From IMG/VR virus record IMGVR_UViG_3300037466_002047: a stretch of 64,000 nucleotides of DNA; one strand, given 5' to 3'. The notes under the pieces are model-generated. The model had not been told where the DNA came from. It saw nothing but the letters and a program-made list of their open reading frames with translations, and made no database searches. Source of the DNA: an uncultured virus (IMG/VR IMGVR_UViG_3300037466_002047). Its lineage: Duplodnaviria > Heunggongvirae > Uroviricota > Caudoviricetes. A program made the position numbers and the translations under genes. Shown here one piece after another: positions 45,951-64,000 of this stretch (positions are counted from its first letter, which is position 1; every line of letters begins with the position of its first letter).

Positions 45951-45961
45951 GGAGCACCATC

Positions 45962-46408: not shown

Positions 46409-46410
46409 CC

Positions 46411-46740: not shown

Positions 46741-46752
46741 GGGAACAAGGGC

Positions 46753-47533: not shown

Positions 47534-47894
47534 ACCGGTGCGCGGTCGCCGTCCGGTAGATCAGGTGCTCCGGATCGTTCGCATCGGGCTCATATCCGAC
47601 ATGCTCCCCCGCCGAATTAAAGACCTTCTCGCGCGCTCCGAGCGGAGGATCGTGGTCCAAATGGAGAGCCTCGGCCTCGGTCGGCTCTTCCACACCGGAG
47701 AGAACCTGCGCCAACTGGAGCAATAGCTCCTCCAGCAAGCGACGGAAGCCGCGCCGATAGATCGGATTCACCGTCGGGTCTGCGAGGTCGCGCGTGCGCA
47801 TGACGACCTCGTCGGGAAACATCTCCCCGAGTTGGCGCATCGCCACCCGGCAGCGAACCTCCAGAGGGATGTGCGGGCGCAATAGGCGCGGCAT
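47304..47894 (-). CDS. HNH-like nuclease
   Basis: LHLDHDPPL...NDPEHL......H..KT; basic C-terminus. Confidence 0.6.
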   Translation of the reverse strand: MPRLLRPHIPLEVRCRVAMRQLGEMFPDEVVMRTRDLADPTVNPIYRRGFRRLLEELLLQLAQVLSGVEEPTEAEALHLDHDPPLGAREKVFNSAGEHVGYEPDANDPEHLIYRTATAHRFKTNVRGDGAQHPDRVLIKRQRKLEKREAAKAAAKRPGKASPSVPKFRPSSRPLQSANRWPPRGSRPFRPRKPSRS

Positions 47895-48109
47895 TCATGG
47901 CTCCAAAGCGGGCGGCTGATCCGAGCGATCCCAGCGGGCCTTATATTCGTCGATGAATTCGGGCTCGTAGCTCGAGCGCCAGCCGCACGTGCAAAAGAAC
48001 TGATTGCCGTCGAAGCGAACGCGCCGGAAGCAGCGGTCCTCGCCGCAGTAGGGCATATAGCCCGGCCGGGTCATGAGGTTTTCGCGAACGATGCTACGCT
48101 CCGGCATGC
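47895..48109 (-). CDS. small Cys-rich protein
   Basis: YMPYCG..RC......F.CTCGWRS. Confidence 0.55.
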
Positions 48110-48648
48110 AGCCAATCCTCGTCGCGGTCTTTCCAGGCGAGCAATTCGACCTTGGCATGCCCGGCGATGCGGTCGGCCGAGTTCTTCACATATTCCGGAA
48201 CGTAGTGGTGGATGAACTCCGGCGACATGAGCGCAATTTGGACTCTAAAACGAGTCACCTGCCGGATCATCAGCGTGCCCTGCTGAATGTCGCGCCGGAG
48301 CGACGGGCAGAACCGCATGCAGATGGCCGCACACTCGCGATGGAGCAGCGGCTCGACCTGCATCACGGCCGGACCTTCCGCGCCATTGTTCCGGACCGTC
48401 GCATGGGATAGCGACACCTTGGTCCGATTGCGCAGCGGCTTTCCACAGAGGTCGCAGAGCCCCTCACCGATGGCTTGGCGCTGGCGGACGTTATGAGGCT
48501 TGCCGAATAGCGGCTTCCCTTCGCCCGGGTGGTGCTCCTGGCAGAGCGCGGGCCGACCGTCAGCGAAACGGCAGCGCGCGACGAACTGCCTTTCCTCCGC
48601 GGACCACGAGACGGTGAATGGGACCGGCGTGTTTCCAAATGTGAGCAT
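48094..48648 (-). CDS. Zn-binding hypothetical protein
   Basis: PVPF...W, H..RQR...LCDLCGKPL, EPLLHRECA.....CP. Confidence 0.7.
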   Translation of the reverse strand: MLTFGNTPVPFTVSWSAEERQFVARCRFADGRPALCQEHHPGEGKPLFGKPHNVRQRQAIGEGLCDLCGKPLRNRTKVSLSHATVRNNGAEGPAVMQVEPLLHRECAAICMRFCPSLRRDIQQGTLMIRQVTRFRVQIALMSPEFIHHYVPEYVKNSADRIAGHAKVELLAWKDRDEDWLHAGA

Positions 48649-49025
48649 TAGCGTCGCCGCGTGGCCTCCAATAGCGGAAGGTTAGCCTCCGTGGGGACAT
48701 AGATGGTCTCGCCTTCCCGCTCCTCCATCATCCGAATCCATTGCCAGCGCAGATAGAGGTCGTGCTCCTTCAAGCCCTCACCGATGCGGTTGATCTGCTC
48801 GCGCACGGCTTCGGCTTCGATGATCGCCGCCTCTTTGTTCAACGTGGCAGCGTTCTTCCGGCCGAGGGCTCGAGCGACCTGAATCTGCTGTTCGGCTTGC
48901 GCCTGCGCGAGGTCGGCCTCGCCGCTCTTGCGAGAGGACCAAACATTATAAATCGGCATGACCAACATCAACGCGCTGATGACCACCAGCACGATTAGCA
49001 TTCCGATGAATACGATCTCGATCAT
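48648..49025 (-). CDS. SPFH/band-7-like small membrane protein
   Basis: N-terminal TM, P.YNVW, G.A.LA.A, YLRW.WI, IYVPTEANLP.LEA; AGGAG RBS. Confidence 0.7.
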   Translation of the reverse strand: MIEIVFIGMLIVLVVISALMLVMPIYNVWSSRKSGEADLAQAQAEQQIQVARALGRKNAATLNKEAAIIEAEAVREQINRIGEGLKEHDLYLRWQWIRMMEEREGETIYVPTEANLPLLEATRRR

Positions 49026-49180
49026 TTGCGCTTCTCCTTCTTTGGTTTTTTCGCCGGGATTGCCGCCACCTTCTCCTTTAAAGCCTGGAGCGAGGCGCGC
49101 TTCTCCTGCTGCGACCGCTCGAAGTTGGCCTCGCGTAGAGCTTTGATCTGATCCTGTTTCGGAGATGGCTGCTTCGACAT
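49022..49180 (-). CDS. 52-aa basic protein
   Basis: MSKQPSPKQDQIK...KKPKKEKRK; GGGAG RBS; ATGA overlap with the next gene. Confidence 0.55.
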   Translation of the reverse strand: MSKQPSPKQDQIKALREANFERSQQEKRASLQALKEKVAAIPAKKPKKEKRK

Positions 49181-49531
49181 GTTGCTGCTCCCGGTAGGCG
49201 GTGACTACTTCGATTTGAATGGCACGAATTTTCGCAGGGTCGCCACAACCCTCATCCAGACACCGGGCGTGCATGTGCTGCCAGAGAGGGAACGGGATTC
49301 CGAGCCGTAGCGCCTCGACCTGGGGACGCGGGCCAACGGGCCCATGCGTCGGGGAGCAAGTGGGGCACCAATAGAGCCCGAGCGTTCGGTGCTTGCGTAG
49401 TTGGCGGCGACCGCACCCCCAGATGCAGTGCATTTTTTCATTTCCCGGTTTCGCAGCCGAGCGTCACGACGCCGCTGCTTGTTCATCGCTTCGATGGTGC
49501 AGGACCATTCAGACATTGCAGCCCCCCAGCA

Positions 49532-50148
49532 ACTGAATTCGGGGCAGGACCGTCGCCCTAAGCGTCTCACGGCCCCGCCCCGTCATCAGTATCTGTCGCA
49601 TGCAGCGACAGATCGACGAGCGAATGCGAGTCGCACACTCGTCAATTTACCCGCTCCTCTGAGACGGAGGCACAAGGTAACGGGCAATTCGAATTTCGGC
49701 GGCGACGGCCCAGAACCCTCTACCAAGGGCACTCTGCAAGGCCCCAGCATCGACCCCGGCGAAGGACATTCACGAGGAACCCATGCAGGGCAACCGCCGC
49801 CTGTCCGAACCGGTCACGTGCCCGGCACGGCATCTCGCCCGGTAACCAGCACTATTTCAGCCGGTGCGTAGCGAGTAACGAACATCGGAGGCCCGGCCGT
49901 TCGGGACGCAACCCGCTGGGGGCTGGGGGGCTGGGGTCCAGCGAGCAATCCGCCGACCGAGCCACCGATGTTCGCACGCTTCTTTCAGGGCCGATCCTAC
50001 GCCCTAGCAAACCTCACGGACCGGCCCTTTCCGAAGCCTTGAGAGAGATCTCGCGACGAGGACATCTCTTCAGAGCGAATGCTCTGAATGCCGCCAACTC
50101 CTCTAAGGTCCAGGGCAGGAGGGGATCGGCGGCAATCGGTGAGAGCGA
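49532..50148 (-). ncRNA. ~600-nt highly structured non-coding segment
   Basis: at least seven clear inverted repeats tiling the intergenic region; no convincing ORF. Confidence 0.65.
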
Positions 50149-50622
50149 TTAGCCGGTCGGCTCCGAGGAGGGCGACACGTCGATGACCGGGAGCGCCTTG
50201 ATTTCCTCCTCGGGCATGTTGGCGAGGAGCGACTTGCGCAATTCGTCGGCGCGGCGGCGCTTATCGGCCTTCGCGACCGCATCCATGAACTGCGTCTCGC
50301 GGTCCAGAACGCGCTTGAATTCAGACACATCGACCTTCGACACAATCCAGCGCACCTCAGTGCGGGAGTCGTAATCGATTTCCAAATCGACCTCCGCGAC
50401 CTGCACGGTGGTGAAGCCGAGGCGGTTCTCGCCATTCGTGGGGACGACGCAGATGTCGCCCTTCGAGATGCTCTTGTCGAGCGTTTTGAACAGCATCGGC
50501 TTGGTGCCCGGGTGCACGTTGCCCTCGGGGGTCAGGCCCTCGTAGCTGCAGAGGATGGCGCGGACCTCGGGGTTCACGAGAAAGACAGCGAGCGATTTAT
50601 TTGCAATGGCGGCGGTAGACAC
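50149..50622 (-). CDS. hypothetical phage protein
   Basis: FKTLD..I.KGD..VVPT...V.V.EVD...RWIVSKVD. Confidence 0.7.
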   Translation of the reverse strand: MSTAAIANKSLAVFLVNPEVRAILCSYEGLTPEGNVHPGTKPMLFKTLDKSISKGDICVVPTNGENRLGFTTVQVAEVDLEIDYDSRTEVRWIVSKVDVSEFKRVLDRETQFMDAVAKADKRRRADELRKSLLANMPEEEIKALPVIDVSPSSEPTG

Positions 50623-50638
50623 GTTCTCGGCTCCTTTT

Positions 50639-51064
50639 TCAAAATTTGCGTGCGGGACGTTCGCTCTCGACGGCGGGCTGGGGTAGGGCCTCTCCAGGGT
50701 TGTCCACGTTATCCCCTGCACCGTTCGCAATTTCGAGCAAGACGTCGGCGTGACACGAGAGTCCGACGCGGCACCAGCACGCCAGATTTTTACCTGCCAA
50801 TTCGCGGCGCGCGGCTTCGATGAGATTGGGTCGCTGCATGATCATGAGCCGGTAGCACTCGATGGCATCCTCCCGCGTCGGCACCGCGAAATAGGGCGAG
50901 CCGGGGATTTGCTTCCCCGCTGGCCAATTCGGGAGGATGGAGAACGGATTCCCGAACTTGCCCGGCCGCGTGACCTTCACGGCGTCGAGTCCGTTCAATT
51001 TGCGGGAGCGCGCCTGCAGATCAAAGCCAGCACGCCGAGAGAGCGAGATGCGGACCGGCTTCAT
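50639..51064 (-). CDS. DUF4326-like protein
   Basis: VTRPGKFGNPF...LAGKNLACWC.....CHADVLLEIAN. Confidence 0.85.
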   Translation of the reverse strand: MKPVRISLSRRAGFDLQARSRKLNGLDAVKVTRPGKFGNPFSILPNWPAGKQIPGSPYFAVPTREDAIECYRLMIMQRPNLIEAARRELAGKNLACWCRVGLSCHADVLLEIANGAGDNVDNPGEALPQPAVESERPARKF

Positions 51065-51641
51065 GCGTTGCCGCCGCGCTCGTGCTCGGGAGCAGGGCGC
51101 GTGCCGGACCAATCCGGCCGCACGCCGTGGTGTTCGAATATCAAATCGCTGACGGCTGCGATCATCATGGCCTTGAACGCCTCCATGCGGACCTTATCGA
51201 TGACAAATTGCATCCGGATCGAGCCGAGGAAAACCGCGCCATCCATGGTGTCGGGGAGCGCGTAATAGGCGACCCACAGCGAGCCCTCGACGCGCAGCGC
51301 GAGCCGACCGACCTGCTCCTTAAGTTTTGCCGGGATGTCGTCGCTCACGCCACGCCCTCCAATTTCGCCCGCAGAGCAATGGAGGCGATCAAGGCGCTCG
51401 TGTATCGCGATACTTTCGCCACGACCACCTCCTCCGGGGGCGACCCTTCACGCGCGCGGCTCCAGAGCCGGTCGGTGACGTACATCGACATTGCGCTCCA
51501 TACCGCGACCTCCGGCGCTTTCCGGTCGCGCTGCGCGTCCTCTAGCAAGCTGGCGCGCGCGCGGAGCCGATCCATTGCTTCCTCGATCTCTTTGACCGTG
51601 TCGAGGATCGCGGTTTTCATTTCTTCAGACGGTGTACTCAT
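51061..51641 (-). CDS. two hypothetical ORFs (51061-51348, 51345-51641)
   Basis: coupled ORFs. Confidence 0.6.
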
Positions 51642-52168
51642 CAGCCCCTCTCCAATTCGGCTCGCGTGATGCCGAGCACGCCAGCGAGATATTCAAGCAC
51701 GTCCTCACACGACCGTCGGTATTCTTCCTTGGTCATGTGCCCCTCTTCCGGATCGCCCACTTTCTGGCTCCGGGGGGCGCGGACGCGCACGGCATTTCCG
51801 GACACGGTGACGACTACGCCATCGTTCGCGCGGTCTTTCAACGCCCATACGCCGATGGCCTGGGCCGCCTGCTCATTGGCGGCCTCGAGGTAGGAATCGA
51901 CGTACCAGCCGGTGTTGATGAGCGCCCGGTGCCGCATGTCGGACACGGTCGGGTAGCGCGCGGTCTGCTCGGGGGTGAGTTGGTCGTGGGCACGCCGGAT
52001 GATCGCATGATAGCGCCCGCGCTCCCGCGGCGAGACGTCATCGACCTCTACCGCCTCCATCACGTAGCGGCGGCCGTCCTGCATTCGATTGCGGCAGAGC
52101 AAGAGGTACTTCGGATCGGGCCTGAGCACGCCAGCCTCGGCGTCCCAGACGAACGGCACCGGCTGCAT
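51641..52168 (-). CDS. recombination-module accessory protein (NinB/Orf-like position)
   Basis: directly after the exonuclease; RH.ALI.TGW, PRSQ, M.KEEY..S...VL. Confidence 0.55.
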   Translation of the reverse strand: MQPVPFVWDAEAGVLRPDPKYLLLCRNRMQDGRRYVMEAVEVDDVSPRERGRYHAIIRRAHDQLTPEQTARYPTVSDMRHRALINTGWYVDSYLEAANEQAAQAIGVWALKDRANDGVVVTVSGNAVRVRAPRSQKVGDPEEGHMTKEEYRRSCEDVLEYLAGVLGITRAELERG

Positions 52169-52800
52169 CAGCGCACCCCGTAGTTCCGGACCAGGGCGCA
52201 GAGCGCGTCGCAGTCTTTGTTAAATTGCAGGACCGCGGCATAGAGATCCTTGATGAATTTATCGTCGCGGAAGATGCGGAAGCGCGGGGTAACAGGCATG
52301 GTCCGGTAGTAGCAGACGACGTCGCACCATTCGCGCTCACAAATCCAGAGACACCCCTGCACCTGTGCCATGTGCTCGGGGGGCATCCGGTCGAGGCGGA
52401 TCGTCTCCACCATGATGTGGGGCGATTGCGATTTAAATTCGACAATACCCTTGTCACCGACAAGCCCATCAGGGCTGCAGGAGCACATGCCGTCCCGGTG
52501 CACGACAAGCCCGACCTTGCGCACGGTCTCGTCGGTCAGGAGTTCGTAGGCGCTGAGCGCCTCGGGCTCCATGGTGTGGCCTCGGTCGGTGTAAGAATTG
52601 GAAAATGACTCCGCGGGCTCCCCGGAGAGACGTTCGCCAGCGATCTTCCGGAGATATTCGTCGCGCACTTTGCCCTCGCCCTTGGCGAGGATCTTCTTGA
52701 AATTGCTGGCGGTGGGGCGGCCGCAGCGGTGCTCAAACCACTCCGGCGAGTTCTGTTCGCACTCTATGACGAGCGGCTGTTTCCCGAGACGGTTTGACAT
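52168..52800 (-). CDS. YqaJ/lambda-exonuclease family protein
   Basis: EQNSPEW...R.G.PTAS, RGH.MEP.A, SPDGLVG...VEFKS, QVQG.LW. Confidence 0.92.
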   Translation of the reverse strand: MSNRLGKQPLVIECEQNSPEWFEHRCGRPTASNFKKILAKGEGKVRDEYLRKIAGERLSGEPAESFSNSYTDRGHTMEPEALSAYELLTDETVRKVGLVVHRDGMCSCSPDGLVGDKGIVEFKSQSPHIMVETIRLDRMPPEHMAQVQGCLWICEREWCDVVCYYRTMPVTPRFRIFRDDKFIKDLYAAVLQFNKDCDALCALVRNYGVR

Positions 52801-53606
52801 CACTTCTGCCGGATGAGGTTCATGGCCTGGGCGAACTGCTGGCCGGAGAGTTGATCGACCGCTTCGACTCCGAAGTGGGTGCAAAGCTTCGGCACGTCCA
52901 CGCCCTTAAATTCGATTGCCTTGTTCAACTCATCGAGTTGCTTCTTGGTGATCGGCGTGACGTCGCGCGCGCGCTCGCCATCGGTATCCTCGCCAGCGAT
53001 GGTCACATCGAAAATCATCAGCTTGAGGTAGCGCCGACCGTAGGAGAGGATGACGCCGACGCCCTGCGATGGGGCCATCAACTCCTTGCCCTGCGGCGAC
53101 TTGTGCGCGCCCGCGGGGAAGTCGAGGAAGTACTCGCGGCTCCAGCCAGAATGCCCATGGATGAGAACGCCTTTGACGCGATAGTGCCCATCCAGAGGAG
53201 AGTCGGCCATCGTCGTGGTAAGGCCGAAGCCGTGCTTCGCCATCAGCGGGTCCAGTTCGGATGACACCTTCTCGAGCGTCGCATATTTATGCTTGTCCGA
53301 TGCCTTATCCTTCGCGATGCGCGGCCGCGCCGATTGCAGCGCGATCAGCGCGGAGAACGCCTCGCGCTCCGCTTGGCGCGCGCGCTCCTCGTTCAGCAAT
53401 TTGGTGAGTTCGCCCATCTTCGCGGTATCGACCCTCGGATCGAGAGAGGCAGCGAGGATGCTCGCGAGCATGGTGTCCGCCGGAGCGGGCGCGGCGGCCG
53501 GAGCGGCGGCAACCGCCACCTCCTGAGATTTGCGCTTCCGGGTCGGCGCGACGTCGGCCTCCATCGGAAGCTCGGGAGATTTATCGGCGGTGGCGGCCTT
53601 GGTCAT
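52800..53606 (-). CDS. ERF-family single-strand annealing protein
   Basis: KYATLE, P.M.KHG, H.HSG, QG.G..LSYGRRYL......GEDTDG. Confidence 0.88.
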   Translation of the reverse strand: MTKAATADKSPELPMEADVAPTRKRKSQEVAVAAAPAAAPAPADTMLASILAASLDPRVDTAKMGELTKLLNEERARQAEREAFSALIALQSARPRIAKDKASDKHKYATLEKVSSELDPLMAKHGFGLTTTMADSPLDGHYRVKGVLIHGHSGWSREYFLDFPAGAHKSPQGKELMAPSQGVGVILSYGRRYLKLMIFDVTIAGEDTDGERARDVTPITKKQLDELNKAIEFKGVDVPKLCTHFGVEAVDQLSGQQFAQAMNLIRQK

Positions 53607-53981
53607 TTGTTCAAATTTCCTTGTTGGTGGTTGGGCGCGCGAGATGATGCAGGAACAGCGTCTCGCGGCGGAAAGCAGAGCACCCCTGCTCTGGTAGGCG
53701 GAAGGTCGCCCACATAGGGCTGTTGCGATTTTCACAAACGGCCCCGGCGCGATCATTCTCGGCCAGGATCACGCTATCGCACCAAAAGCGGCAGACGGCG
53801 CATCGATTAGGCGCGCATTTTTCAGTCATTGGAGTCACCCCTCTATGCCCACCCGGGAGAGGCGAGACGGTCGGCGCTTTGAATGAAGGAAGGGCAGTTC
53901 GGCTCGAGTTTCCCGGGACACGAAGCGGCAGGTTCGCGTGGGTGAGCGGGCGGGGAAAGCGCGATTCCGGTCATTCCACTG

Positions 53982-54011
53982 AAAAGAAAAGGCCCGGTGG
54001 ATAACCGGGCC
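53982..54011 (-). terminator. rho-independent terminator
   Basis: GGCCCGGT-TATCC-ACCGGGCC-TTTTCTTTT on the minus strand. Confidence 0.8.
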
Positions 54012-54067
54012 AGAGGTGGGCTTTCGCCACGTTCGGGAGGAACGCGGCGACAGGATGCACATACCGA

Positions 54068-54466
54068 CTACATTTGTGCAAGTGGAGTTATCCCCTGACG
54101 CCGGTAAGCTATGACGCCGCGCATCGACCGCACGCGACGGCGCACGCGATGCCCGTCATTGCCGGATAGCACCTCCCAGCCTTCCGCGGCGTGACCAACG
54201 ATCTTTCCAACATGGTGGGCCCAGACGACGATCACGCCAATGGCGGGGCCACCAGCATCGATCCCCCACCGCGCCCATGCGCGCGCTTGATTGAAAAGTT
54301 TTCCAGGGTCGTGGTCGACCAGATTGTGCCGAGCATACCACCCGCACCATGCAGACGGCCTGGGATCGCCGGTCGAAGCCCGGTGATGATGGTGATGCGA
54401 GCGCGCCGCGGCAGGGGAAGCGGCGAGAGCGAGGGCACAGGCCAGAGCAATCGCGGTGGGTTTCAT
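54068..54466 (-). CDS. secreted CHAP/NlpC-P60-like peptidase
   Basis: signal peptide, His run, AWCGW, ARAW..WG, HHVG.I.G, SGND. Confidence 0.75.
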   Translation of the reverse strand: MKPTAIALACALALAASPAAARSHHHHHRASTGDPRPSAWCGWYARHNLVDHDPGKLFNQARAWARWGIDAGGPAIGVIVVWAHHVGKIVGHAAEGWEVLSGNDGHRVRRRVRSMRGVIAYRRQGITPLAQM

Positions 54467-54559
54467 CTGGTCTCCCTTGGTTCCGTTGCGAGGGACGGAA
54501 TCGGTAGCGTGCACCCGGCCGCGATGTCCAGTTCGCGGTGCATAAGTCCTGAGCGCCCA

Positions 54560-54627
54560 TTGTCGGGCGAGCGCGCGCGGTGCTCAGATCGCGATGTTAA
54601 TTTTTCCCACATAAATGGAGATGCAAG
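54560..54627. promoter_or_regulatory. divergent promoter region
   Basis: AT-rich GTTAATTTTTCCCACATAAAT between divergent operons. Confidence 0.45.
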
Positions 54628-55098
54628 ATGGCTCGCAAGGCCAAGAACGCCGACTCCGGCGAGAGCAAAGTGTCGACGTCCGTGTCGGTGCTGATCAACG
54701 CCAACCAATTGAACAATCTCATCAAAGCCGGTCGCTCGACCGCGAAGCAGACGGCCGAATTGACCGGCTCGTTCCGCGAGAAGATCGCCTATGCGAAGGA
54801 CAAGCAGTGCCTCCACACCAAGGCGTTCGCGCACACGCGCCAGATGGACAAGATGGAGCCCGAGCAACTGCTCGAGTACTGGACGCACCTGCTCGCCTAC
54901 ATGGACATGGCGGGCATCAAGGAACGCATGGACGCTGTCGGCACGCTCGGCCTCGATGATGGCGATGCGCCCGCCGGTGCTGACGTCGGTGGCCGTCCCG
55001 CGAACGTCGAAAGCCTTGCGGAAAAGCGCAAGCGCCGCAGCGCCGCGGCCGAAGGCGAAGGCGAAGGCCAGGGCGAACCCGAAACCGCCGTCCACTGA
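54628..55098 (+). CDS. GapR-like (DUF2312-related) DNA-binding protein candidate
   Basis: helical pattern ...IAYAKDKQCLHTKAF...MDKMEP...LLAYMDMAG resembling the GapR core. Confidence 0.45.
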   Translation: MARKAKNADSGESKVSTSVSVLINANQLNNLIKAGRSTAKQTAELTGSFREKIAYAKDKQCLHTKAFAHTRQMDKMEPEQLLEYWTHLLAYMDMAGIKERMDAVGTLGLDDGDAPAGADVGGRPANVESLAEKRKRRSAAAEGEGEGQGEPETAVH

Positions 55099-55682
55099 TG
55101 CGTCCGTTCGCGGACCTTGCCGGGCGAAAGTTCGGCCACCTCGTCGCCGTCTCCTCCGAATTGAGGGGGCGGCGACGTTATTGGGAATGCCGCTGCGAGT
55201 GCGGAACGGTAAAGCGCATCAGGCATGATGGCCTGCTCGCTGGCGACCATACATCCTGCGGGTGCCTTAAGGGTTTCGCACACGGCGGCACTGGCACGCC
55301 GGAACATAAGGCGTGGTGCAATATGATCGAGCGGTGTCACACGACAACGCATCGCGAATATCGACGCTATGGCGGGCGCGGGATTGAGGTCTGTCAGGAA
55401 TGGCGAGAGAGCTTCATTGCATTTCTGCGGCACATCGGGCCACGTCCATCACGGAAGCATTCCGTCGACCGGATAGACAATAACGACGGCTACCGCCCCG
55501 GCAACGTCCGATGGGCGACCGCGCGGCAGCAAGCCCACAATCGGCGCGGTCAAATCAATGAAGCGATAGCGGAGCGCGTCCGCAAGGCGAAGGGTAAGCA
55601 AATCGAAATAGCGCAGCGATTTGGAATACATCCTTCGACCGTCAGTCGCATAAAATCGGGTGAACAATGGGCCTCTATTTAG
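55098..55682 (+). CDS. HNH homing endonuclease
   Basis: CRCECG, SCGC, W.NM..RC, YGGRGI.VC.EW, SVDRIDN..GY.PGNVRWAT..QQ..N; C-terminal HTH. Confidence 0.9.
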   Translation: MRPFADLAGRKFGHLVAVSSELRGRRRYWECRCECGTVKRIRHDGLLAGDHTSCGCLKGFAHGGTGTPEHKAWCNMIERCHTTTHREYRRYGGRGIEVCQEWRESFIAFLRHIGPRPSRKHSVDRIDNNDGYRPGNVRWATARQQAHNRRGQINEAIAERVRKAKGKQIEIAQRFGIHPSTVSRIKSGEQWASI

Positions 55683-56194
55683 GCGTTGACCCAGGCATCA
55701 CCGGCGCGCTGTCCATCGTGGATTGCGCGCCGGGTCGTACCCCGGCCCTCGTTTCGTGCATCGATGTTCCGGTGGCAGGCGAGGGGGCGAAGAAACGAGT
55801 GGCGGTCGGCAAGCTCTCGGAGTGGCTCGATAAGCACGACGCCAACATCAAGGTCGCCTATATCGAACGCGCGCAGGCAATGCCCGACCAGGGATCGTCC
55901 AGCGGCTTCCTTTACGGCCGGTGCGTGGGCGCGCTCGAGGCCACGGTCCTCCTGCACGGCATCCCCCTCAGAACGGCCGAGCCGAGCGTCTGGAAGCGCG
56001 CAATGGGTCTCAGCAAGCAAGGGAAGCCTGCCAGCCTCGCAAACGCACGGCTGCTCGTTACAGGCTCGTCTGAGGCCCTTACGCGCGCAGGCGACCATAA
56101 CCGAGCGGAGTCCATGCTGATCGCGGTCTGGGGCGCGACGCAACAGGGAGTCCTAGTTCCGATCAGTTTTCAAGCTACGCGGCAGGCGGGCTGA
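55667..56194 (+). CDS. RuvC-like Holliday junction resolvase
   Basis: LGVDPG.TGA, IE, P..WK, DHNRAE.MLIA. Confidence 0.85.
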   Translation: MGLYLGVDPGITGALSIVDCAPGRTPALVSCIDVPVAGEGAKKRVAVGKLSEWLDKHDANIKVAYIERAQAMPDQGSSSGFLYGRCVGALEATVLLHGIPLRTAEPSVWKRAMGLSKQGKPASLANARLLVTGSSEALTRAGDHNRAESMLIAVWGATQQGVLVPISFQATRQAG

Positions 56195-56295
56195 GGATTC
56201 GGTGAGTTGCGGGGGAGAACTCTCCCGCGGCCATAGCTACCCCGGCGGGAAGCGGGCCATGTAGCGCCCGCCCGGGGGGCGGATACGGGGAGCCG

Positions 56296-56943
56296 ATGCA
56301 ATCATCGCAATCACTTCCGCCCGGCGACCGCTTGCTTCGCGGGCTGCCGCTCAAGCATTTCCCTTGCGTCCACGCCGACGTGCCGTGGCATTACAAGCCC
56401 TATAAGCCCCCGCCGCCGGACGCGCATGGTCGCCGCGACACGGAACGCCACTACAGCACGATGAGCGTCGATGAGATCGCGGCGCTGCCGGTTGCAGACT
56501 ATGTCGCGCGCGACTGTCATCTGTGGTTCTGGTCGACCGGAACGCACCTCCCGATGGCTTTCGAGATCATGCGTGGGTGGGGGTTTAAGTTTTCCGCGAG
56601 CGGCTTCGTCTGGATCAAATTGAAAAAGAAGTTTGGCCAGCGCGAGCACCTCATCCGGAGCTATAGCATTGAGGAAGCGCTACACCTCGGGCTCGGCAAA
56701 ACGACGCGCAAAAACGCGGAGTTCTGCCTTCTCGGCCGCCGCGGCAATCCGAAAAAGCTGAGCAACAGCGTGCGCGAGGTCATCCTCACGCCAGTGCGTG
56801 AGCATTCGCGCAAACCGGACGAGGTGTACGAGCGCATCGAAAAATACTGCCCGGGCCCGCGGCTCGATTTGTTCGGCCGACAGCAGCGCCCGGGATGGGA
56901 AGTCCGCGGCGACGAAGCCGACAAGTTCGGAGTCGAGGCATGA
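56296..56943 (+). CDS. MT-A70 family adenine methyltransferase
   Basis: ADVPW, HYSTM, L.FW.T, WGF, FVWIK, R.NAEFCL.G.RG, REHSRKPD, LFGR..RPGW..RGDE. Confidence 0.92.
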   Translation: MQSSQSLPPGDRLLRGLPLKHFPCVHADVPWHYKPYKPPPPDAHGRRDTERHYSTMSVDEIAALPVADYVARDCHLWFWSTGTHLPMAFEIMRGWGFKFSASGFVWIKLKKKFGQREHLIRSYSIEEALHLGLGKTTRKNAEFCLLGRRGNPKKLSNSVREVILTPVREHSRKPDEVYERIEKYCPGPRLDLFGRQQRPGWEVRGDEADKFGVEA

Positions 56944-57818
56944 CGACGCCGCTGGGGTACGTCCGCGTTTATCGCCGCACCTGGGAGCACGCAATGTTTC
57001 GCGATGAGCCCTATACGCGCCGCGAAGCATGGCTCTGGCTGATTTCGGAAGCCGCATGGAAGCCAACTCAAGTCCGGATTTGGCCGATCCCCGGCAGAGC
57101 CGGAGTGGTGATCAATCTCGAGCGCGGCCAAGTCGCCCACGCCGAGCGGTTCCTTGCGGAGAAGTGGGGGTGGAGCCGGAGCAAGGTTCGGCGGTTTATT
57201 CGCGACCTAACCTCCGAACGGATGGTGAGCCGCGCGACGGCCCAGCCTGCGGCCCAGGCTATTAGCGTACTAACCATCTGCAAATACGACGAATATCAGC
57301 CGGACCGATCCGACGACGGCCCAGCCTCTGACAACGAAACGGCCCAACCTGCGGCCCGCGATCCGGCCCAAAGTAAAAGAACAGAAAGAACAGAAAGAAC
57401 AGAAATAGGGGTAGAATCTATCGGTCCCGAGCTGACCCTTTTCGGGGTCAACGCGAACGCCGGAACCGAACTCCCGAGCGGTCCACCGGCAGCGCCGAAG
57501 CCAGCCAAGGTTCCCGCGGTGCAGGACGACTGGCCGGTGGATTACGGGGAACAATTCTGGGTTCGATACCCTCCTGGCCGGAAGTCCGGCAAGAAAGCGG
57601 TGCTCGCGAAGCTGGCGACCATTCGCAAAAACCGGGAAGTGACCTTCGCGCGCCTAATGGACGGACTGAGCCGATACGTCGAATCCATGCCGGACCCGAA
57701 ATACACGAAAGGCCCGCTCGTCTGGTTGAACCAGGGGTGCTGGGACGATGAGCCGCCGCCCGCGAGTCAACGTGGGCGAGAATTGACGATGGCCGACATT
57801 GCGCGAGGAAATTTCTGA
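56940..57818 (+). CDS. replication initiator (lambda O-like)
   Basis: EAWLWL, LERGQ.....RFLA.KWGWS..KV.RF, TIC.Y..YQ, FW..YP, WLN..CW.DE; internal iterons. Confidence 0.8.
   Translation: MTTPLGYVRVYRRTWEHAMFRDEPYTRREAWLWLISEAAWKPTQVRIWPIPGRAGVVINLERGQVAHAERFLAEKWGWSRSKVRRFIRDLTSERMVSRATAQPAAQAISVLTICKYDEYQPDRSDDGPASDNETAQPAARDPAQSKRTERTERTEIGVESIGPELTLFGVNANAGTELPSGPPAAPKPAKVPAVQDDWPVDYGEQFWVRYPPGRKSGKKAVLAKLATIRKNREVTFARLMDGLSRYVESMPDPKYTKGPLVWLNQGCWDDEPPPASQRGRELTMADIARGNF
57238..57406 (+). repeat. iteron-like repeats and A-rich tandem repeat (probable origin)
   Basis: CGGCCC at 57238, 57250, 57317, 57340, 57352, 57364, then AAGAACAGA x3. Confidence 0.7.
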
Positions 57819-58609
57819 TGAGCAACGAACTCACAACGCAGGCAGAAAACCGGCGGCCGGTGCTGGCGGACGATCCGACGACGCGCGAGATCGTCCGCGT
57901 GCTCACGCTGATGAAGCTCGCTGACGGGGAGCGTGAGCTTCGCCGCGAACTCAAGCCGGGTGAGCGCAAGGCGCTCGAGCGCCGCAAGATCGAAATCGGG
58001 CGCTTCCTCCGGCCGATTGATCGTGCCGATGAGGAGCGTCGCCACCTCGCGCAGACGCTCGGGCAAATGTTCCTCGGCTTTGGGACGGCAAATACGAAAG
58101 ACGCCGCCGCGAAGGTTTCGGCTTACATCGAGGGCCTACTCGACCAGCCACTGCACGCGATCCTTTGCGCCATCGATGACATCCGGAGGGGCAACACGGA
58201 TCTGGATTCCTCCTTCGCGCCGACCAGCGTCGACATCGTTAAGGCGGCGAAAAAATACACCGAGGATGCGCGCGCGGAGTTGGCGGCCATCGACGCGACG
58301 CTCCGCGGCAAGCCCGGCCAAGTCCAGATCAGCGAAGCGGAGCGTGCGCGCATTGGTGCTGGACTCAAGGATCTCGCGAAGGGGATGCGCGCCAACCTCG
58401 ACGGCGAAAAAATCGACAAAGGCGACGAATTCGCCAAGGCCGCGGCCGCCAGGAATAACTCCTACATCGGAAACGAGTGGGAGCGGTACGGGCTCGAGCC
58501 GCGCTATGCGGACAAGGAAAAGACGATTCCGGTGAGTCTCGCGCTGGCGCGCATGAACAATCCGGAGTTGGATGTTCAATGCCGCAACATCGAAAAACGG
58601 AGGAAGTGA
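57818..58609 (+). CDS. helicase-loader-like protein (by position)
   Basis: follows the initiator; Y...L.D.P..AI..A......FAPT. Confidence 0.5.
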   Translation: MSNELTTQAENRRPVLADDPTTREIVRVLTLMKLADGERELRRELKPGERKALERRKIEIGRFLRPIDRADEERRHLAQTLGQMFLGFGTANTKDAAAKVSAYIEGLLDQPLHAILCAIDDIRRGNTDLDSSFAPTSVDIVKAAKKYTEDARAELAAIDATLRGKPGQVQISEAERARIGAGLKDLAKGMRANLDGEKIDKGDEFAKAAAARNNSYIGNEWERYGLEPRYADKEKTIPVSLALARMNNPELDVQCRNIEKRRK

Positions 58610-58998
58610 ACGTGAGCAGCAACGGATGGGTCGGCGTCGACCTCGACGGCACGTTGGCCTTTTACGACCACTGGCGCGGGCCCGAGCACATCGGCGCTCC
58701 GATCCCCGCCATGCTCGAGCGCGTGAAGCGCTGGATCGCGGAGGGCCGGGAGGTCCGCATCTTCACGGCACGCGTCGACAATGCGAACGGGGACGCCTTC
58801 ACGGCCCGCCGCGCCATCGAAGCGTACTGCCAGGAGCATGTCGGTGAGGTGCTCCCGATCACCAACCAAAAGGACTACCGGATGGTAGAAATGTGGGACG
58901 ACCGCTGCGTACAGGTCATCCCAAACACCGGCCGCACGATTGCGGACGAATTGGAATCCGAGCGCATGGCGCGCGCGGGCAAGCAGGCGGGGCACTGA
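58606..58998 (+). CDS. HAD-family phosphatase (PNK 3'-phosphatase-like)
   Basis: VGVDLDGTLA, IFTAR, TNQKD, WDDR. Confidence 0.88.
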   Translation: MNVSSNGWVGVDLDGTLAFYDHWRGPEHIGAPIPAMLERVKRWIAEGREVRIFTARVDNANGDAFTARRAIEAYCQEHVGEVLPITNQKDYRMVEMWDDRCVQVIPNTGRTIADELESERMARAGKQAGH

Positions 58999-59037
58999 CG
59001 CCCGGTTCGGTTGGTAGGAGTTAGTAGCGTGGGATCG

Positions 59038-59346
59038 ATGAAAGAGTTGCTTGGTGATGATCCGCAAGCGTTCGCGCGGCACACCGACCCAGGGACGAGC
59101 CGCGAAGCGGCGGCCCGCATCAGCAGCAAAGTTAATAAGCTCGAGCAGGCGGTCGCTGACTCGATAAAGGCGGCGGGCGTGGCGGGGCGCACGTGGGACG
59201 AGATCGCGGCCGATACCGGGTTGGATAAGGCATCGGTGTCGCCGCGCTTTAAGCCACTGCGCAAAAAAGGCGTCATCCGCGCCAAGGTCGATGATGCTTC
59301 GAAGGAAGTGAGACGCGACCGGCAAACCGTGTGGGTGGCGGTGTAG
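59038..59346 (+). CDS. winged-helix DNA-binding protein
   Basis: AR.TDP.TS.EAA; TWDEIA..TG...SVSPR...L...G; VW. Confidence 0.7.
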   Translation: MKELLGDDPQAFARHTDPGTSREAAARISSKVNKLEQAVADSIKAAGVAGRTWDEIAADTGLDKASVSPRFKPLRKKGVIRAKVDDASKEVRRDRQTVWVAV

Positions 59347-60288
59347 CCATGCCGAGCACGCCCACGGCGGCTGTAGAAAAGCATACGCTTCCGACACGCC
59401 GGAAGCAGCGTGCCGCCGCGCTTTTCGGCCTTCGGATGATCGGGCGGGGATGGAGCGGGCAGGCCAACGAGGAAAACGCCGCTATGAGCGAGGCAGGAGC
59501 AAAGCTGTTGAACGCCGCCCGCGAGGCAGTGCAAGTGGCCACTTGCGACCATCGACTTGAACTGATCGCGAGGCAGGAAAAGGCAGACGGCACCGTCTAC
59601 ACCGCTCACTGCCTTAAATGTCGGGCGCGCTTCACCACGCACCGCCTTTCAGAATTAACAAGATTGTAGAGAGACGCCGCCATGACGATTATGCCTGTAG
59701 AGACGTTTCAGCCGTTTGCGCGGCAGATGTTTGAGGCGGTTTCGGCAGCTTGTGCGCTCCCTGACGGGACTAGTCGCGAAGTACTTTTGAAGTCGCTCGC
59801 CGCTGCCGTTATGGCCGCAACGCATGTGCCGGTCATGGTCACGGACGACAATCTAAAATCGGAGGTGAAATAGCCCGCTATGGCGCAGATCGGCGGAAGG
59901 CTTGGCGGAAAGACCGCAGCTATGGAGAAGCTGCGGGACGAGTTCTTGCGAAAGCATCCGAAGGCTACCGTCGCCACCTGTCATCCTGGCGGCGAGGTCA
60001 TCGTCGAGAAGCACGTCGAGGAACTCGGTCCACTACGGCTAACCGATCAACGGAAGGAATAGCCCGGTGAGCGACAAACGCGAATGGGTGATCCGCAAGC
60101 GCGGATACTTCTACCGGCCCAATCGTGCGGGCTACACGTCGAATATAAACGAGGCTGGGCGTTACACCCAAGCCGAAGCGACGGCGGAGGAACGGGTCGA
60201 GCCGATGCTAATCACCGCGCACCTCGCCTGCGAGTTCGAGAACTTCGCGGCCTACGGGCCGATGGACGACGCAACCTAACAGGTTAGC

Positions 60289-60505
60289 CCGCCATGATCA
60301 CAGATAATAATCGCAGCTTTTTGAAGCTACTCCTGCGGTCCCCCGACATCGGCGACGGCTGGCGTCAGGTTTCGGATGTCGTCTGGCCGCTCGTATCGGG
60401 GTTTGACAAGAAAGAACTACTGGAATTGAACGAAGACGAGAAGCGGGTCCGATTGTCCCCTGACGGTCTAGTCGTAGCGAACTACTTGGTTTGAAGGAAT
60501 ATGCC
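60289..60505 (+). repeat. 217-bp exact direct repeat, copy 1 (carries the 66-aa ORF MITDNNRSF...)
   Basis: base-by-base identical to 62106-62322. Confidence 0.97.
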
Positions 60506-61078
60506 CGTGGCGCGATACACCGACATGGCACTGGCGCAGATCAGGGCGGCAGCAGGAAGCAATCAGGCCGAATGGTCAGAGTTCGACCACGCGATTATGA
60601 ACATCGCGCGGGAGGCCGACGAGGAGGTCGAGCGGCTGCGCCAGGTCGAACACAGGTATTTGGAAATGAGAACGGCCGCTCAATCTGCGGCTCACTCTGG
60701 ATGACAGGATAGCCCCGCAATGTCTTACGCCGACGATCTAGCGAAGGACCGGGACAAGTACCGGGCGCAGCGCAACCAACTTGCGCGGATGCTCGAAACG
60801 CTGATCGAGGATGCTACGCCAAAGAACGTCGCGGCGGCGAAGAAGCTCCTGCGGAAAATTGAGCAGTCGGACCCGATTGCAAATGCAGTATCCAAGATAA
60901 CAGGATAGCCCGGTCATGCTGCGCTATTGGTACACGCTAAAGGGCTGGCTGGAATGGCCGATGTGCTGGGTTCGCGGCCATGACATGCACACGTTCCCGG
61001 CGTCATGTGCGGATGGTGCCGGGTACATCTACTGCACCCGTTGCAACAAATTGGAAGAAGTGTAGGAACACCCCGATC

Positions 61079-61348
61079 ATGTGGCAGCCAATGAAAACCG
61101 CTCCGAAGGACGGGACGTGGATTGTTGCCTTCCGTCCGCCTGCGAATGTCGGATCGTGGGACACCTTCGTTCCCGTCAGGTGGGACCAAGACCTAGAAGA
61201 TTTTGTATGGCCAGACCGGCACTGCACGGTTGATCCGTACACCGCCGCAGCCGATGACGACGATTGGCTGGTCGGTGGCGACTACTACGAAGCCAAGGGA
61301 ACGTTCACCCACTGGATGCCGTTGCCAGACCCGCCGAAAACGAATTGA
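61079..61348 (+). CDS. DUF551-like protein
   Basis: WQPMKTAPKDGT...THWMPLP.PP. Confidence 0.8.
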   Translation: MWQPMKTAPKDGTWIVAFRPPANVGSWDTFVPVRWDQDLEDFVWPDRHCTVDPYTAAADDDDWLVGGDYYEAKGTFTHWMPLPDPPKTN

Positions 61349-62105
61349 ACATTTTGTGGAGATAGGCCGCTGCCATGACCGAACTCAGCGACTACAGGCG
61401 CATGATCGAGAGGCCGATGCTGGCGTCGAAAGATGCCGAGATTGCCCGACTGCGCACCTTGAACCGCAAGCTGGTAATGTCGCTTGCCGTCACCTTCTGC
61501 GCGGGCACGTTCTACTGGCTCGCCTACGTGTTGAGATAGCCCGATCAAACGTCAGATGGCCCCTGGTAGAAGTCGCGGGAAACCGCCGCCAACGGAGGTC
61601 GAGGCGTGACAGACCGGAGAGACGGTCACGAGATAGATGGACCCGACGCGACACCTGCCGGGGTCTATGGTGGACCGCAAGGAGTGGTGCGACAGCCGGA
61701 GAGACGGCACTGAAATAGAGGACGGGCAGGCCGATGACCACTCTTCCTGTTGACTACCGAAAGCGCCCTTGGCGGGCTAAGTACCTAGACGAAGAAACGC
61801 CGGTACTTAGCAGGTGGATTGTGTTTGGCGAATTTGACGACGGCACCGTCGGCATTAGCGACATGAACTCTGACATTTTCGAGCATGTGCCCAGAGACGT
61901 TGCCGAGCAGATTATCGACGCGCGAAACGCCTTTGTTGACGTTGTCTTAAAACACTTCTCCCACCTGTAGGATTGCGCCCGATGCCGCGCTATCGCGTAG
62001 AGTTCAAAGAAACGCGAACCCATGTTGCGGTTATCGAGGCCGACGACGCCGAAATCAAGCGCGTGGTGTCCGCACGGATCGCCATGCATAACCTGTCGAG
62101 ATAGG

Positions 62106-62322
62106 CCGCCATGATCACAGATAATAATCGCAGCTTTTTGAAGCTACTCCTGCGGTCCCCCGACATCGGCGACGGCTGGCGTCAGGTTTCGGATGTCGTC
62201 TGGCCGCTCGTATCGGGGTTTGACAAGAAAGAACTACTGGAATTGAACGAAGACGAGAAGCGGGTCCGATTGTCCCCTGACGGTCTAGTCGTAGCGAACT
62301 ACTTGGTTTGAAGGAATATGCC
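62106..62322 (+). repeat. 217-bp exact direct repeat, copy 2
   Basis: identical to 60289-60505. Confidence 0.97.
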
Positions 62323-62323
62323 G

Positions 62324-62767
62324 CTAACCGAGCGTCCCAGGCGCGAAGCAATATGTCTGCCTACCGCCGCCGACACCTACCCACCACCAAACCGCATGTC
62401 CTGTCGGATTCGGGCCAGTGAGAACCTTGTACTTCTCGATTTTCTCGCCTTCGACTATCACGCTGCCGTCTTGGTTGAGCGTGTAGTCGCCATAGTACGG
62501 ATGCCCGTCTGCTTCGTCACAGCACCATAGGCCAGCTGCGTTGTGCTGTGACCTATACCACTGCGCATGAGGGGCATTGGCGTATTTGCCGGAGGGATCG
62601 CGGGCATGAGCGGTTGCCAGACCAATCAAACATGCGATGATGATCAGTGCACCATAAATGGCTTTCGTCTGCCAGTCGCCAAATCTGCTATAGTCGGACG
62701 TCTCCGGCGAATAGATTTTGCCGCTCAGCCTGAAAGCTTCGGAGAGCGGATCGTCCAGATCGCTCAT
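62324..62767 (-). CDS. secreted/membrane-anchored Cys-containing phage protein
   Basis: TM + AHA, WY......CCDEADG, PNPTGHAVWW, YCFAPG. Confidence 0.7.
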   Translation of the reverse strand: MSDLDDPLSEAFRLSGKIYSPETSDYSRFGDWQTKAIYGALIIIACLIGLATAHARDPSGKYANAPHAQWYRSQHNAAGLWCCDEADGHPYYGDYTLNQDGSVIVEGEKIEKYKVLTGPNPTGHAVWWWVGVGGGRQTYCFAPGTLG

Positions 62768-63105
62768 CCTGTATATTCCCGGTCGATGCCACGTGCGCCG
62801 CGCACAAACCCCTCACCGTGACGCAACTCGTCATAGCGGCGATCAAGGGTATCCATGCGAGCGTCCATCGTATCGAGGCGCTGCTTTTGAACGGCCACGT
62901 CGGTCAGAAGTGTATTGACGACCTTCATTTCATCCTTCAGACCTTTGATCTCGTCTGCTTGTTGCTTCATGGCCAATTCTACCCGCCCGGTAGTGCGACC
63001 GAGTCGGATCAAAATAAGGCCGCCGCCGCCGACGATGCCGATAACTTCGATTAGCTTTAGCCCTGTATCGAGTGCAGCGAGTGCATCGGCCCCTGTCACT
63101 GCCAC
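62764..63105 (-). CDS. TM plus coiled-coil lysis-module-type protein
   Basis: N-terminal TM, heptads, RYDELRHGEGF. Confidence 0.65.
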   Translation of the reverse strand: MAVTGADALAALDTGLKLIEVIGIVGGGGLILIRLGRTTGRVELAMKQQADEIKGLKDEMKVVNTLLTDVAVQKQRLDTMDARMDTLDRRYDELRHGEGFVRGARGIDREYTG

Positions 63106-63215
63106 GACCTTTCATTAACGTTTATTGGTTCAAGATCGTCGGCGGTCATTCGGGCCTCCTTTCAGGCTCGGGTGGTCAGGGTCGGGCGAGCGTTGCCGCG
63201 CTCGTTCGGCCCGCT

Positions 63216-63611
63216 CTACTTTCGTCCGAAAATGGCAATCGCGGCCTGGGAAAGCCCTTGACCTATGCCGACAGCGGCACCGGACGGAAACACGTTGGCG
63301 ATGATGAGCCTCGCCCATTCGAGCGTTTCGCCTTCCAGGTGGGGCGTATGGCCCAGGCCGAGCGCGGAATCCCACGCCACGGACTTGCCGAAGTAGAAGG
63401 CGAGAGGCAGCGTGAATGCGAGCCACGCGACCCAAAAGGCCCGATAGGCCATCGCCGCTTTGGTTTGGCTAAGGCGTGCCTCCAGCGTCTTAATGCGGGC
63501 GTCCCACAGGATTCGCTCTTGATCGGTCTGCGCGTTCTCATGCGCTGTGTAGGCCGCCGTCATATCCTTTAGAATTGCGCCGATCGGATTGAGCCAAGCA
63601 AGGAAGCCCAT
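63216..63611 (-). CDS. holin-like membrane protein
   Basis: amphipathic N-terminus, W...FTLPL..YFGK.V.WD..LGLG.T..L. Confidence 0.65.
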   Translation of the reverse strand: MGFLAWLNPIGAILKDMTAAYTAHENAQTDQERILWDARIKTLEARLSQTKAAMAYRAFWVAWLAFTLPLAFYFGKSVAWDSALGLGHTPHLEGETLEWARLIIANVFPSGAAVGIGQGLSQAAIAIFGRK

Positions 63612-63614
63612 GGC

Positions 63615-63971
63615 TCACGCCTTTTTCAGCGTGCGAGCGCGTGCCCAAGCAACGACGGCGGCAAAGAGAGCTAGGGCAATGCCGACATCCGTGGGCGTCA
63701 CCCACGCCTGGATAACCTGCTTGAATGCGTCTGCTGCGCCGGGATCATTCAGCAGACCGCAAACCCAATCTGTGACTTGGCTGCTAACCGCGACGAGAAG
63801 TCCGGAAAGCACCCCGAGCTGCGCCACAACCATCGTGGCCGATCCCCTCCCCGCATCGATCCATCTGCCGAATCCGGTTGAGGTCGATTTCAGGTACGAG
63901 GAAACGAAGTCATAGAGGACGACCGCGAAGATCGCGAGCGCGACAAAAGTGGTGATAGCTTTGAACGACAT
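63615..63971 (-). CDS. 3-TM holin-like protein
   Basis: three hydrophobic helices; basic C-terminus ARARTLKKA. Confidence 0.6.
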   Translation of the reverse strand: MSFKAITTFVALAIFAVVLYDFVSSYLKSTSTGFGRWIDAGRGSATMVVAQLGVLSGLLVAVSSQVTDWVCGLLNDPGAADAFKQVIQAWVTPTDVGIALALFAAVVAWARARTLKKA

Positions 63972-64000
63972 AGCTCAGCCCTTTTTGTGGAAATATCGAA

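Follow-up and report, generated by a model that had tools for sequence, protein, structure and literature searches.

Introduction

Integrons collect one-gene units in one orientation behind an upstream promoter, with a recurring site between them, and the same cassette can be found in different arrays and at different positions. Here, we describe an array of tiny genes on a phage genome in which single genes are duplicated, present or absent, or exchanged between short stop-start junctions. The array belongs to the uncultured virus IMGVR_UViG_3300037466_002047 of IMG/VR (Caudoviricetes), of which we analysed a stretch of 64,000 nucleotides (nt), a part of its contig and hereafter called the window; the element under study is a 217-nt unit, U, that is present twice in this array without a single difference. 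The closest working analogue is found in T4-type phages, namely the PeSL system (Arbiol et al. 2010, PMC2839356). According to the passages of that paper devoted to it, small open reading frames (ORFs) of unknown function lie in a plastic genome region and are split by an oriented motif that recurs. Related phages differ by insertions, deletions and replacements at this motif, and neighbouring motifs are proposed to recombine, with mini-circles looping out that can re-insert elsewhere (PMC2839356). In the same passages, the motif is a conserved sequence of ∼100 bp that comprises a sigma-70 early promoter and a terminator stem-loop (PMC2839356).

Related ideas come from the mosaicism of lambdoid phages, for which boundary (linker) sequences were put forward by Clark et al. 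(2001) and Susskind and Botstein (1978), both as cited in PMC3029335. In the model as outlined there, short sequences at gene borders are common to mosaic phages while the genes around them are unrelated, and they are proposed to be sites of homologous recombination. Other passages of PMC3029335 deal with the stoperators of mycobacteriophages, 13-bp asymmetric repressor sites that lie genome-wide in short spacers and in one orientation and to which these passages ascribe no gene-shuffling role, and with the MPMEs, elements of 439 bp that have inverted-repeat ends, are identical in different phages and show 6 bp added between IR-L and the target.

A search of the open-access literature found no array with TAG-GCC junctions of the kind reported here, a description in print elsewhere being possible. 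What sets this case apart from the known ones is a minimal stop-start junction inside one operon together with very fresh events. Fresh events on one short, array-specific boundary, in three phages from similar samples, make testable a question of phage evolution that has been open for decades. The arrays give an unusually clean view of phage gene shuffling, and their study would also show small accessory genes spreading gene by gene through a phage community.

An exactly duplicated one-gene unit

Direct comparison within the window shows that positions 60289-60505 and 62106-62322 agree in 217 of 217 nt and that the first base outside differs on both sides. The initial annotation had reported precisely this, a 217-bp unit repeated at 100% identity, and the repeat does not extend by even one base. 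A repeat search of the window returns the pair at a spacing of 1817 nt, and an exact repeat of 217 nt in 64 kb is beyond chance. The differing contexts also were described correctly: copy A follows ..CAGGTTAGC and copy B ..GAGATAGG, and the sequences after the two copies are CGTGGCG and GCTAACC, respectively. The seven units that had been counted between the copies correspond to seven ORFs, listed here with the other features of the locus.

59038-62311, plus strand: array of 14 tiny ORFs, downstream of the replication genes
60289-60505, plus strand: copy A of U, consisting of CCGCC, an ORF at 60294-60494 (66 amino acids (aa), stop TGA) and then AGGAATATGCC
60506-62105, plus strand: inter-copy block of 1600 nt, in which seven small ORFs of 40-89 aa (DUF551 among them) are interrupted by a non-coding gap of 194 nt (61540-61733)
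60507-60704, 60720-60908, 60916-61065, 61079-61348, 61375-61539, 61734-61970 and 61982-62104, plus strand: the seven ORFs between the U copies
62106-62322, plus strand: copy B of U, with the same layout of CCGCC, ORF (62111-62311, 66 aa, stop TGA) and AGGAATATGCC
62324-62767, minus strand: convergent gene of 147 aa that abuts copy B

Each copy contains a single 66-aa ORF with half a stop-start junction at either end. Copy B is the final gene of the plus-strand operon, and the stop codon of the convergent minus-strand gene begins 2 nt past the unit. The array is tightly packed, 12 of its 13 intergenic distances being 2-26 nt.

Two details inside the unit were recorded. The closing AATATGCC holds an ATG at 60501-60503 and 62318-62320; in copy A it is in frame with the GTG start of the next gene (60507), and in copy B it opens a frame of 70 codons antisense to the convergent gene, probably not a gene. 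Moreover, both copies carry, when read on the minus strand, a terminator-like hairpin (7 bp) with a T-rich tail (60313-60330 and 62130-62147), a weak match to the consensus. In copy B it lies ∼180 nt past the stop codon of the convergent gene; it might end the convergent transcript, and this could bear on the fact that U is the terminal gene in two phages.

The duplication in metagenome contigs

The initial annotation had proposed a check of coverage across the region. Four public rhizosphere metagenome runs (X1-X4) carry the stretch, the best-matching run being possibly the source sample of the window itself, and their Logan contigs were placed on positions 59600-63000. These contigs are built from 31-letter words and leave the U copies unphased; to tell a mixture of molecules apart would take reads longer than about 2.3 kb. 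Stretches without contig cover in X2-X4 carry no weight either way. All four U junctions are present, each in at least two runs. In X1, a contig at 60034-60313 runs into copy A from upstream (depth 10.8), one contig of 1652 nt (60478-62129, depth 11.5) leads out of copy A through the whole block and into copy B, and a contig at 62295-62923 runs out of copy B (depth 15.3). The block is thus connected to the remaining genome solely through U at either end, and the depths of entry, block and exit stand at about 1:1:1, in keeping with two U copies on one molecule. In X3, U forms a separate contig of 217 nt that covers exactly 60289-60505, at a depth of 75.5. We take the duplication as real; the contig data are also compatible with a mixture of molecules carrying 0, 1 or 2 blocks.

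Duplicated cassettes in two other phages

A search for the same unit in other phage contigs, likewise proposed at the outset, found U twice in an otherwise unrelated phage. This second phage is represented by two contigs from one metagenome, G001 (locus L001) and G002 (locus L005), estimated to be 49% and 34% complete. G002 terminates inside U and G001 begins inside U; in the latter, the partial U is followed by genes X, DUF551 and Y and then by a full second U at L001 671-892. The unit is thus present in two places with three genes between them, at 98-100% identity to U of the window. The difference amounts to 1 in 217 nt (99.5%): position 60467 is T in both copies of the window and G in both copies of G001/G002, a synonymous change, and each phage's pair carries that phage's own allele. 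Comparison of the two records (30 kb and 21 kb) with positions 1-40000 and 44001-64000 of the window found nothing shared beyond U and a few scraps, and in a tblastx comparison, noisy with linked low-score pieces, good scores were confined to U and the DUF551 end.

The contig depths are in keeping with a second phage in the same samples. The path from unit to unit in G001/G002 has a depth of 32.9 in X1 and 15.6 in X2, and entry and exit depths of about 38 and 29, as inferred from sums, fit one pass through the loop. A short contig of shared words at 60284-60318 in X1 has a depth of 41.6, against 10.8 + 32.9, as for two phages sharing U. X1 also holds a third continuation out of U, at 60507, and a relative in X1 and X3 equals the window without difference up to 60063, inside TAGC, and then departs. 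Within one sample set, U occurs in at least five flanking contexts.

Outside these contigs, metagenome and genome scans with U yielded relatives at 47-57% only (L008-L010, L014 and L015) and no second near-identical context; one homologue of U is located on a contig of Sulfitobacter. Distant homologues of U at L002, L003, L004 and L006 are single-copy within 6 kb on either side and do not show the junction style. Comparators with an empty site were sought with the flanking 147-aa and 70-aa proteins as queries, which gave only distant relatives at 55-67% (L011-L013), with unusable synteny. A blastn search of positions 59000-63200 against the INPHARED phages gave no match.

A third phage, G003 (locus L031), was found with a pattern made from the other shared scrap, the end of the DUF551 gene plus the junction. 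It is a complete genome of 44.2 kb with terminal repeats, and its array consists of 14 ORFs with TAG-GCC junctions nearly throughout. A different gene, V (56 aa), is present twice in it, at L031 1896-2066 and 2767-2937, with three genes between. The duplicated stretch of 177 nt (L031 1893-2069 and 2764-2940) has one mismatch, which is non-synonymous (M/T, residue 32). Identity opens 3 nt ahead of the ATG, right after TAG(C/G), and closes after ..AAATAGGCC, at the same motif positions as in U. Among viral contigs, the V protein was found in G003 only. In the part compared, positions 44001-64000 of the window, G003 is otherwise unrelated to the window beyond its array matches and one shared module.

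A stop-start junction specific to the arrays

Most array junctions consist of a purine-rich run (GGA, GAGA or AGGA) followed by TAG, (G/C)CC(G/C), 0-9 nt and ATG or GTG. The core is found as TAGC, TAGG, TATG or TTAG, and both U copies close with degenerate forms of the motif (AATATGCC) at 60498-60505 and 62315-62322. The TAG is usually the stop codon of the upstream gene, and it is retained even where the true stop lies further upstream, as before copy A and before 61375. TAG ends 9 of the 14 array genes of the window and 13 of 14 in the G003 array (L031 1064-4158); in the remainder of the window, with ORFs roughly called, it ends only 12 of 73. In the whole window, TAG(C/G)CC(C/G) is found no more often than by chance (19 times against 18.1 expected). 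On the plus strand, 8 of the 10 matches fall within the array span 59871-62108, all at ORF ends or starts.

59871, 60060, 60285, 60710, 60906, 61363, 61537 and 62102, plus strand: starts of the matches to the junction core

The motif is absent from the plus-strand structural genes of the window and therefore is not simply the ribosome-binding style of the host. In G003, 9 of the 12 forward matches to ATAGSCCS lie in 1448-3754, and a control with the reversed pattern gave 2 forward and 1 reverse. The boundary most likely serves the (coupled) translation of the tightly packed array genes. Searches for arrays of this type among viral contigs were made with two further patterns. For ACAGGATAGSCCSNNNATG, none of the matches listed (15 loci) is like the window, and the five inspected are not array-like. 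For TGTSGAGATAGGCCSC, among the matches listed (80 loci), 8-9 junction-type sites occur only in two G003 loci, the other 78 having 0-2.

Array differences break inside the junction

The cassette-by-cassette differences mapped among the arrays of the three phages all break inside the motif. A filled and an empty site can be compared directly: at L031 1455-1709, a 256-nt cassette with a second DUF551-like gene has ATAGGCC on either side, and L001 has a single ATAGGCC there. The flanks of this pair are 100% identical on one side (L031 1060-1454 and L001 105-499) and 97% on the other (L031 1710-1903 and L001 493-688). The identity of L001 and L031 opens at GCCCATG before gene X and closes at TTAGCCC after gene Y, beyond which L001 has U and L031 has V.

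Two boundaries of the window are also conserved between different genes.

62089-62114, plus strand: 26-nt boundary into copy B, comprising the last four codons (NLSR), TAG, GCCGC and the start codon
60893-60912, plus strand: boundary AAGATAACAGGATAG.., comprising the last codons (KITG) plus TAG

The first is the same in 24 of 26 nt at L031 3579-3604; the upstream proteins do not align and the downstream genes are different. The second is matched over 60893-60907 by the 15 nt directly before U in L005, where the upstream proteins have only KITG in common. The claim of the initial annotation that U is a discrete cassette is upheld by these data, as U occurs twice in a second phage, V twice in a third, and the filled/empty pair and two replacements are bounded by the motif as well; its further claim of site-specific excision and re-insertion fared worse and is taken up below with the alternatives.

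Comparison with known systems

The arrays do not show the traits by which integrons, PeSLs, small transposons and homing elements are defined, and the likeness to PeSL is one of working principle rather than of family membership. As at PeSL motifs, gene gain, loss and replacement are bounded by a motif here, as in the filled and empty sites of the second DUF551-like gene, in U versus V after gene Y and at the left border of gene X. However, the boundary is only 7-26 nt long, lies inside one operon and takes in parts of a stop codon, of a ribosome-binding-like run and of a start codon, and the phages that carry it are unrelated, of temperate type and high in G+C. A scan of 58500-63300 for promoters and terminators found 3 promoter-like sites against 1.5 expected, and the junctions have neither stem-loops nor promoter and stem-loop pairs of the PeSL type. 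The only promoter-like site at a gene border is at 62096-62125, a weak match (9 of 12).

In agreement with the boundary-sequence model, the stretches at 62089-62114 (24 of 26 nt, G003) and 60893-60907 (15 nt, L005) are conserved between unrelated genes, and the breakpoints of the mapped array events coincide with boundaries, the exceptions lying outside the arrays or being loose contig ends in X2. In contrast to the lambdoid boundaries, as far as the cited passages describe them, a single type of boundary is present at nearly every border of an array of 14-15 genes, and the events are fresh, with 100% identical copies and a filled/empty pair. The likeness to integrons lies in oriented one-gene units behind a likely upstream promoter, with a recurring boundary, and in the presence of one cassette in several arrays and positions. 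Unlike integrons, the arrays are part of phage genomes, the scanned ORFs of the window include no integron integrase, and there are no attC-like sites, 12 of the 13 spacers being 2-26 nt.

The orientation of the junction motif and its position in spacers would suit stoperators, but the motif is confined to the array and not genome-wide; a comparable protein-binding role is possible on the basis of its arrangement. MPME- or MITE-like elements differ in that the repeat search found no inverted pair joining the ends of either U copy, whose ends are ordinary array junctions. The short direct repeats beside the copies (GCCCG and GCCGC) are part of the junction motif of every array gene. Unlike homing elements, U has no endonuclease at its side: the sole HNH gene lies 4.6 kb from copy A, and no homologue of it was detected in G001/G002, where U is also present twice.

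Genomic setting

The window is that of a tailed phage. Family scans covered 47 of its ORFs against PHROGs and 32 against Pfam and identified the genes listed below, among them those that could take part in recombination.

16133-17686: terminase
19586-22060: portal
23805-24917: major head protein
40465-41292: endolysin
41292-44706: tail fibre genes
52803-53756, minus strand: Erf-family single-strand annealing protein (phrog_155, 6.7e-29; PF04404, 2.8e-08)
55098-55682: HNH endonuclease (PHROGs), the sole HNH gene
55667-56194, plus strand: RuvC-like Holliday-junction resolvase (phrog_1770, 2.4e-19)
56296-56943: MT-A70 methylase
56895-57818: replication initiator

The ORFs scanned include no tyrosine or serine recombinase, and no recombinase is common to all three phages. 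G002 encodes a small serine recombinase (L005 4501-5148, minus strand; Resolvase domain, 8.8e-39, and HTH_7), which lies directly upstream of the likely promoter of the array and divergent from it; it has no counterpart in G001 or G003, the latter having an unrelated 203-aa ORF at the same place. Integrases of the PF00589 family are found in G002 and G003, 3-9 kb from the arrays, where they look like ordinary phage integrases, and none was found in G001.

Mechanism and rival explanations

We favour, with a probability of roughly 0.58, a mechanism in which short-homology recombination at the conserved boundaries, or homologous insertion through U, shapes the arrays without a dedicated site-specific enzyme. 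The boundary recurs in one orientation at every gene border and would thereby offer 4-26 nt of shared sequence where joins harm no gene. General recombination or template switching at such boundaries could delete, duplicate or exchange whole genes, both within a genome and between co-infecting phages. The Erf and RuvC-like functions of the phage itself may assist, with Erf as a candidate for promoting recombination over short homologies. For junctions whose two parents can be deduced, the overlap amounts to 4-7 nt (ATAGGCC at the filled/empty pair; CCGC at the start of copy B, judged against the G003 version of this boundary), which is in the range of microhomology-driven events.

Two routes to the duplication can be envisaged, and they fit equally well. 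In route (a), two boundary-to-boundary events would suffice, for example a tandem duplication of U with the seven genes and a later deletion that removes their second set. In route (b), a circle of U and seven genes would loop out from a sister genome, boundary to boundary, and would insert by one homologous crossover inside U into a recipient that has U as its terminal gene, so that the block comes to lie between direct repeats of U. Route (b) predicts that copy 1 combines the left side of the recipient with the right side of the donor, and copy 2 the left side of the donor with the right side of the recipient. This matches both phages, in which the observed pairs are TTAGC-U-CGTG ... GATAGG-U-GCTAACC (window) and GATAGG-U-CATG ... 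TTAGC-U-GCCAATT (G002/G001). The view of the initial annotation that the crossover point is given by the ends of identity is not supported: one crossover inside U with a looped-out circle would yield all four junction combinations, and on this route the ends would mark only where donor and recipient cease to match.

Several observations weigh against this mechanism. The route and the enzymes are deduced from sequence rather than from observed events. An interval of 4-7 nt is below what annealing proteins usually need. Not all shared segments end at the motif: a module that the window and G003 have in common (window 62768-63215 and G003 4090-4536, 91-94.5% identical), which comprises one minus-strand gene of 113 aa and its upstream spacer, runs from gene border to gene border and has no TAG-GCC motif, so selection for intact genes alone can place breakpoints at borders. 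Likewise, a stretch shared by L005 and G003 ends ∼18 nt inside the 3′ end of a gene, and three loose contig ends in X2 (60187, 60615 and 60645) fall within array genes. In G001 and G002, whose junctions are looser variants, the strict 8-mer ATAGSCCS shows no enrichment, and homologues of the Erf and HNH proteins of the window were not detected in these two records (estimated at 49% and 34% of their genomes). Finally, a near-identical U present twice in each of two unrelated phages needs several recent events on one gene, no fewer than one recent transfer plus two duplications (or conversions), which a general mechanism does not predict. This combination of near-identity and duplication in two phages is seen for no other array gene; it would be expected if U were under strong selection or had some property promoting its own spread.

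Other explanations were weighed against the same data. An assembly artefact, either a chimera of two strain variants or an extra turn around a repeat loop, could be suspected from the length of the repeat, which at 217 nt exceeds the words of short-read assemblies, from the fact that the IMG/VR contigs G001 and G002 both break inside U, and from contigs that do not phase the copies. We nevertheless consider it very improbable, as the block in X1 is reached only through U on both sides, its depth of 11.5 is in line with entry (10.8) and exit (15.3), all four junctions recur in two or more runs, and the second phage shows the same topology with matching depths, 41.6 against 10.8 + 32.9 being as for a loop passed through once. 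Phage mosaicism is mostly explained, as presented in parts of PMC3029335, by random illegitimate recombination followed by selection for whole genes, the motif being a translation signal only. The motif-less borders of the G003-shared module agree with this view, as does the boundary of the L005/G003 stretch ∼18 nt inside a gene. It appears unlikely for the arrays, in which the ends of every event agree within a few bases of one core rather than just anywhere in a spacer, a 7-nt direct repeat flanks the filled/empty pair, and boundaries of 15-26 nt are conserved amid unrelated genes, which selection on gene integrity leaves unexplained; moreover, the copies of U are 100% identical and those of V one base apart, so little time was available for selection.

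Somewhat less likely still is a dedicated, integron-like system whose enzyme, encoded by phage or host, would recognise the TAG-GCC junction, excise single cassettes and re-insert them at different junctions within and between phages. In its favour, every mapped cassette breakpoint lies within a few bases of the core, including those of the independent U and V duplications and of the filled/empty pair; the motif is in one orientation and only in arrays; U is found in five or more flanking contexts within a single sample set and is 99.5% identical in two phages that otherwise share almost nothing; and G002 has a small serine recombinase directly upstream of the likely promoter of its array. This resolvase is, however, without a counterpart in G001 or G003, G002 and G003 have PF00589 integrases that are ordinary-looking and kilobases from the arrays, and neither the window ORFs scanned nor the three phages in common provide a recombinase. 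In addition, junctions of 2-26 nt (12 of 13) leave no room for attC-like folded sites, the core is ∼7 nt and degenerate (TAGC, TAGG, TATG, TTAG), and U has no terminal inverted repeats. These points tell against the site-specific excision and re-insertion of the initial annotation. A related and equally doubtful proposal sees the arrays as a hitherto undescribed gene-cassette platform of temperate phages, in which the stop-start junction ..A-TAG-GCC(G/C)-N-ATG would double as a recombination site. With the help of a dedicated factor, individual ORFs would be excised, copied and handed on there among unrelated phages infecting the same host cell. Such a factor could be a cassette product, for instance the U protein with its winged-helix-like model; this would account for the near-identity of U and its two copies in each of two unrelated phages.

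The U protein and minor observations

Pfam and PHROG scans assign the U protein to no family, and it has just nine sequence relatives among 5.8 billion proteins. Its AlphaFold model is confident (pLDDT 88). Foldseek comparison of the model with the PDB gives weak matches of winged-helix type (best E 0.044), and a comparison with the Atlas likewise gives hints of winged-helix type, below the Atlas bar for naming; a winged-helix-like fold is suggested by the model as a lead rather than a finding. Family hints for other array genes are all weak, namely a winged helix at 59038-59343, DUF3618 below the cutoff at 60720-60905 and DUF551 at 61079-61345.

The only long non-coding gap of the array (61540-61733, 194 nt) contains two 24-nt direct repeats (61614-61637 and 61696-61719), 79% alike and 82 nt apart. 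A junction-like GA(G/A)ATAGA closes each of them, and the repeats may represent decayed cassettes or a regulatory site. An Rfam search of 58000-64000 gave no match at E up to 1, and the predicted fold of the gap is not distinctive (z = -1.78, 10 of 200 shuffles folding at least equally well). Far from the arrays, a lone stretch of 78 nt is 82% identical between the window (5657-5734) and G002 (7291-7368). At the other end of the window, a gamma-glutamyl cyclotransferase-like gene lies beside an amidoligase-like gene (1741-4155, minus strand), which looks like an auxiliary gene pair.

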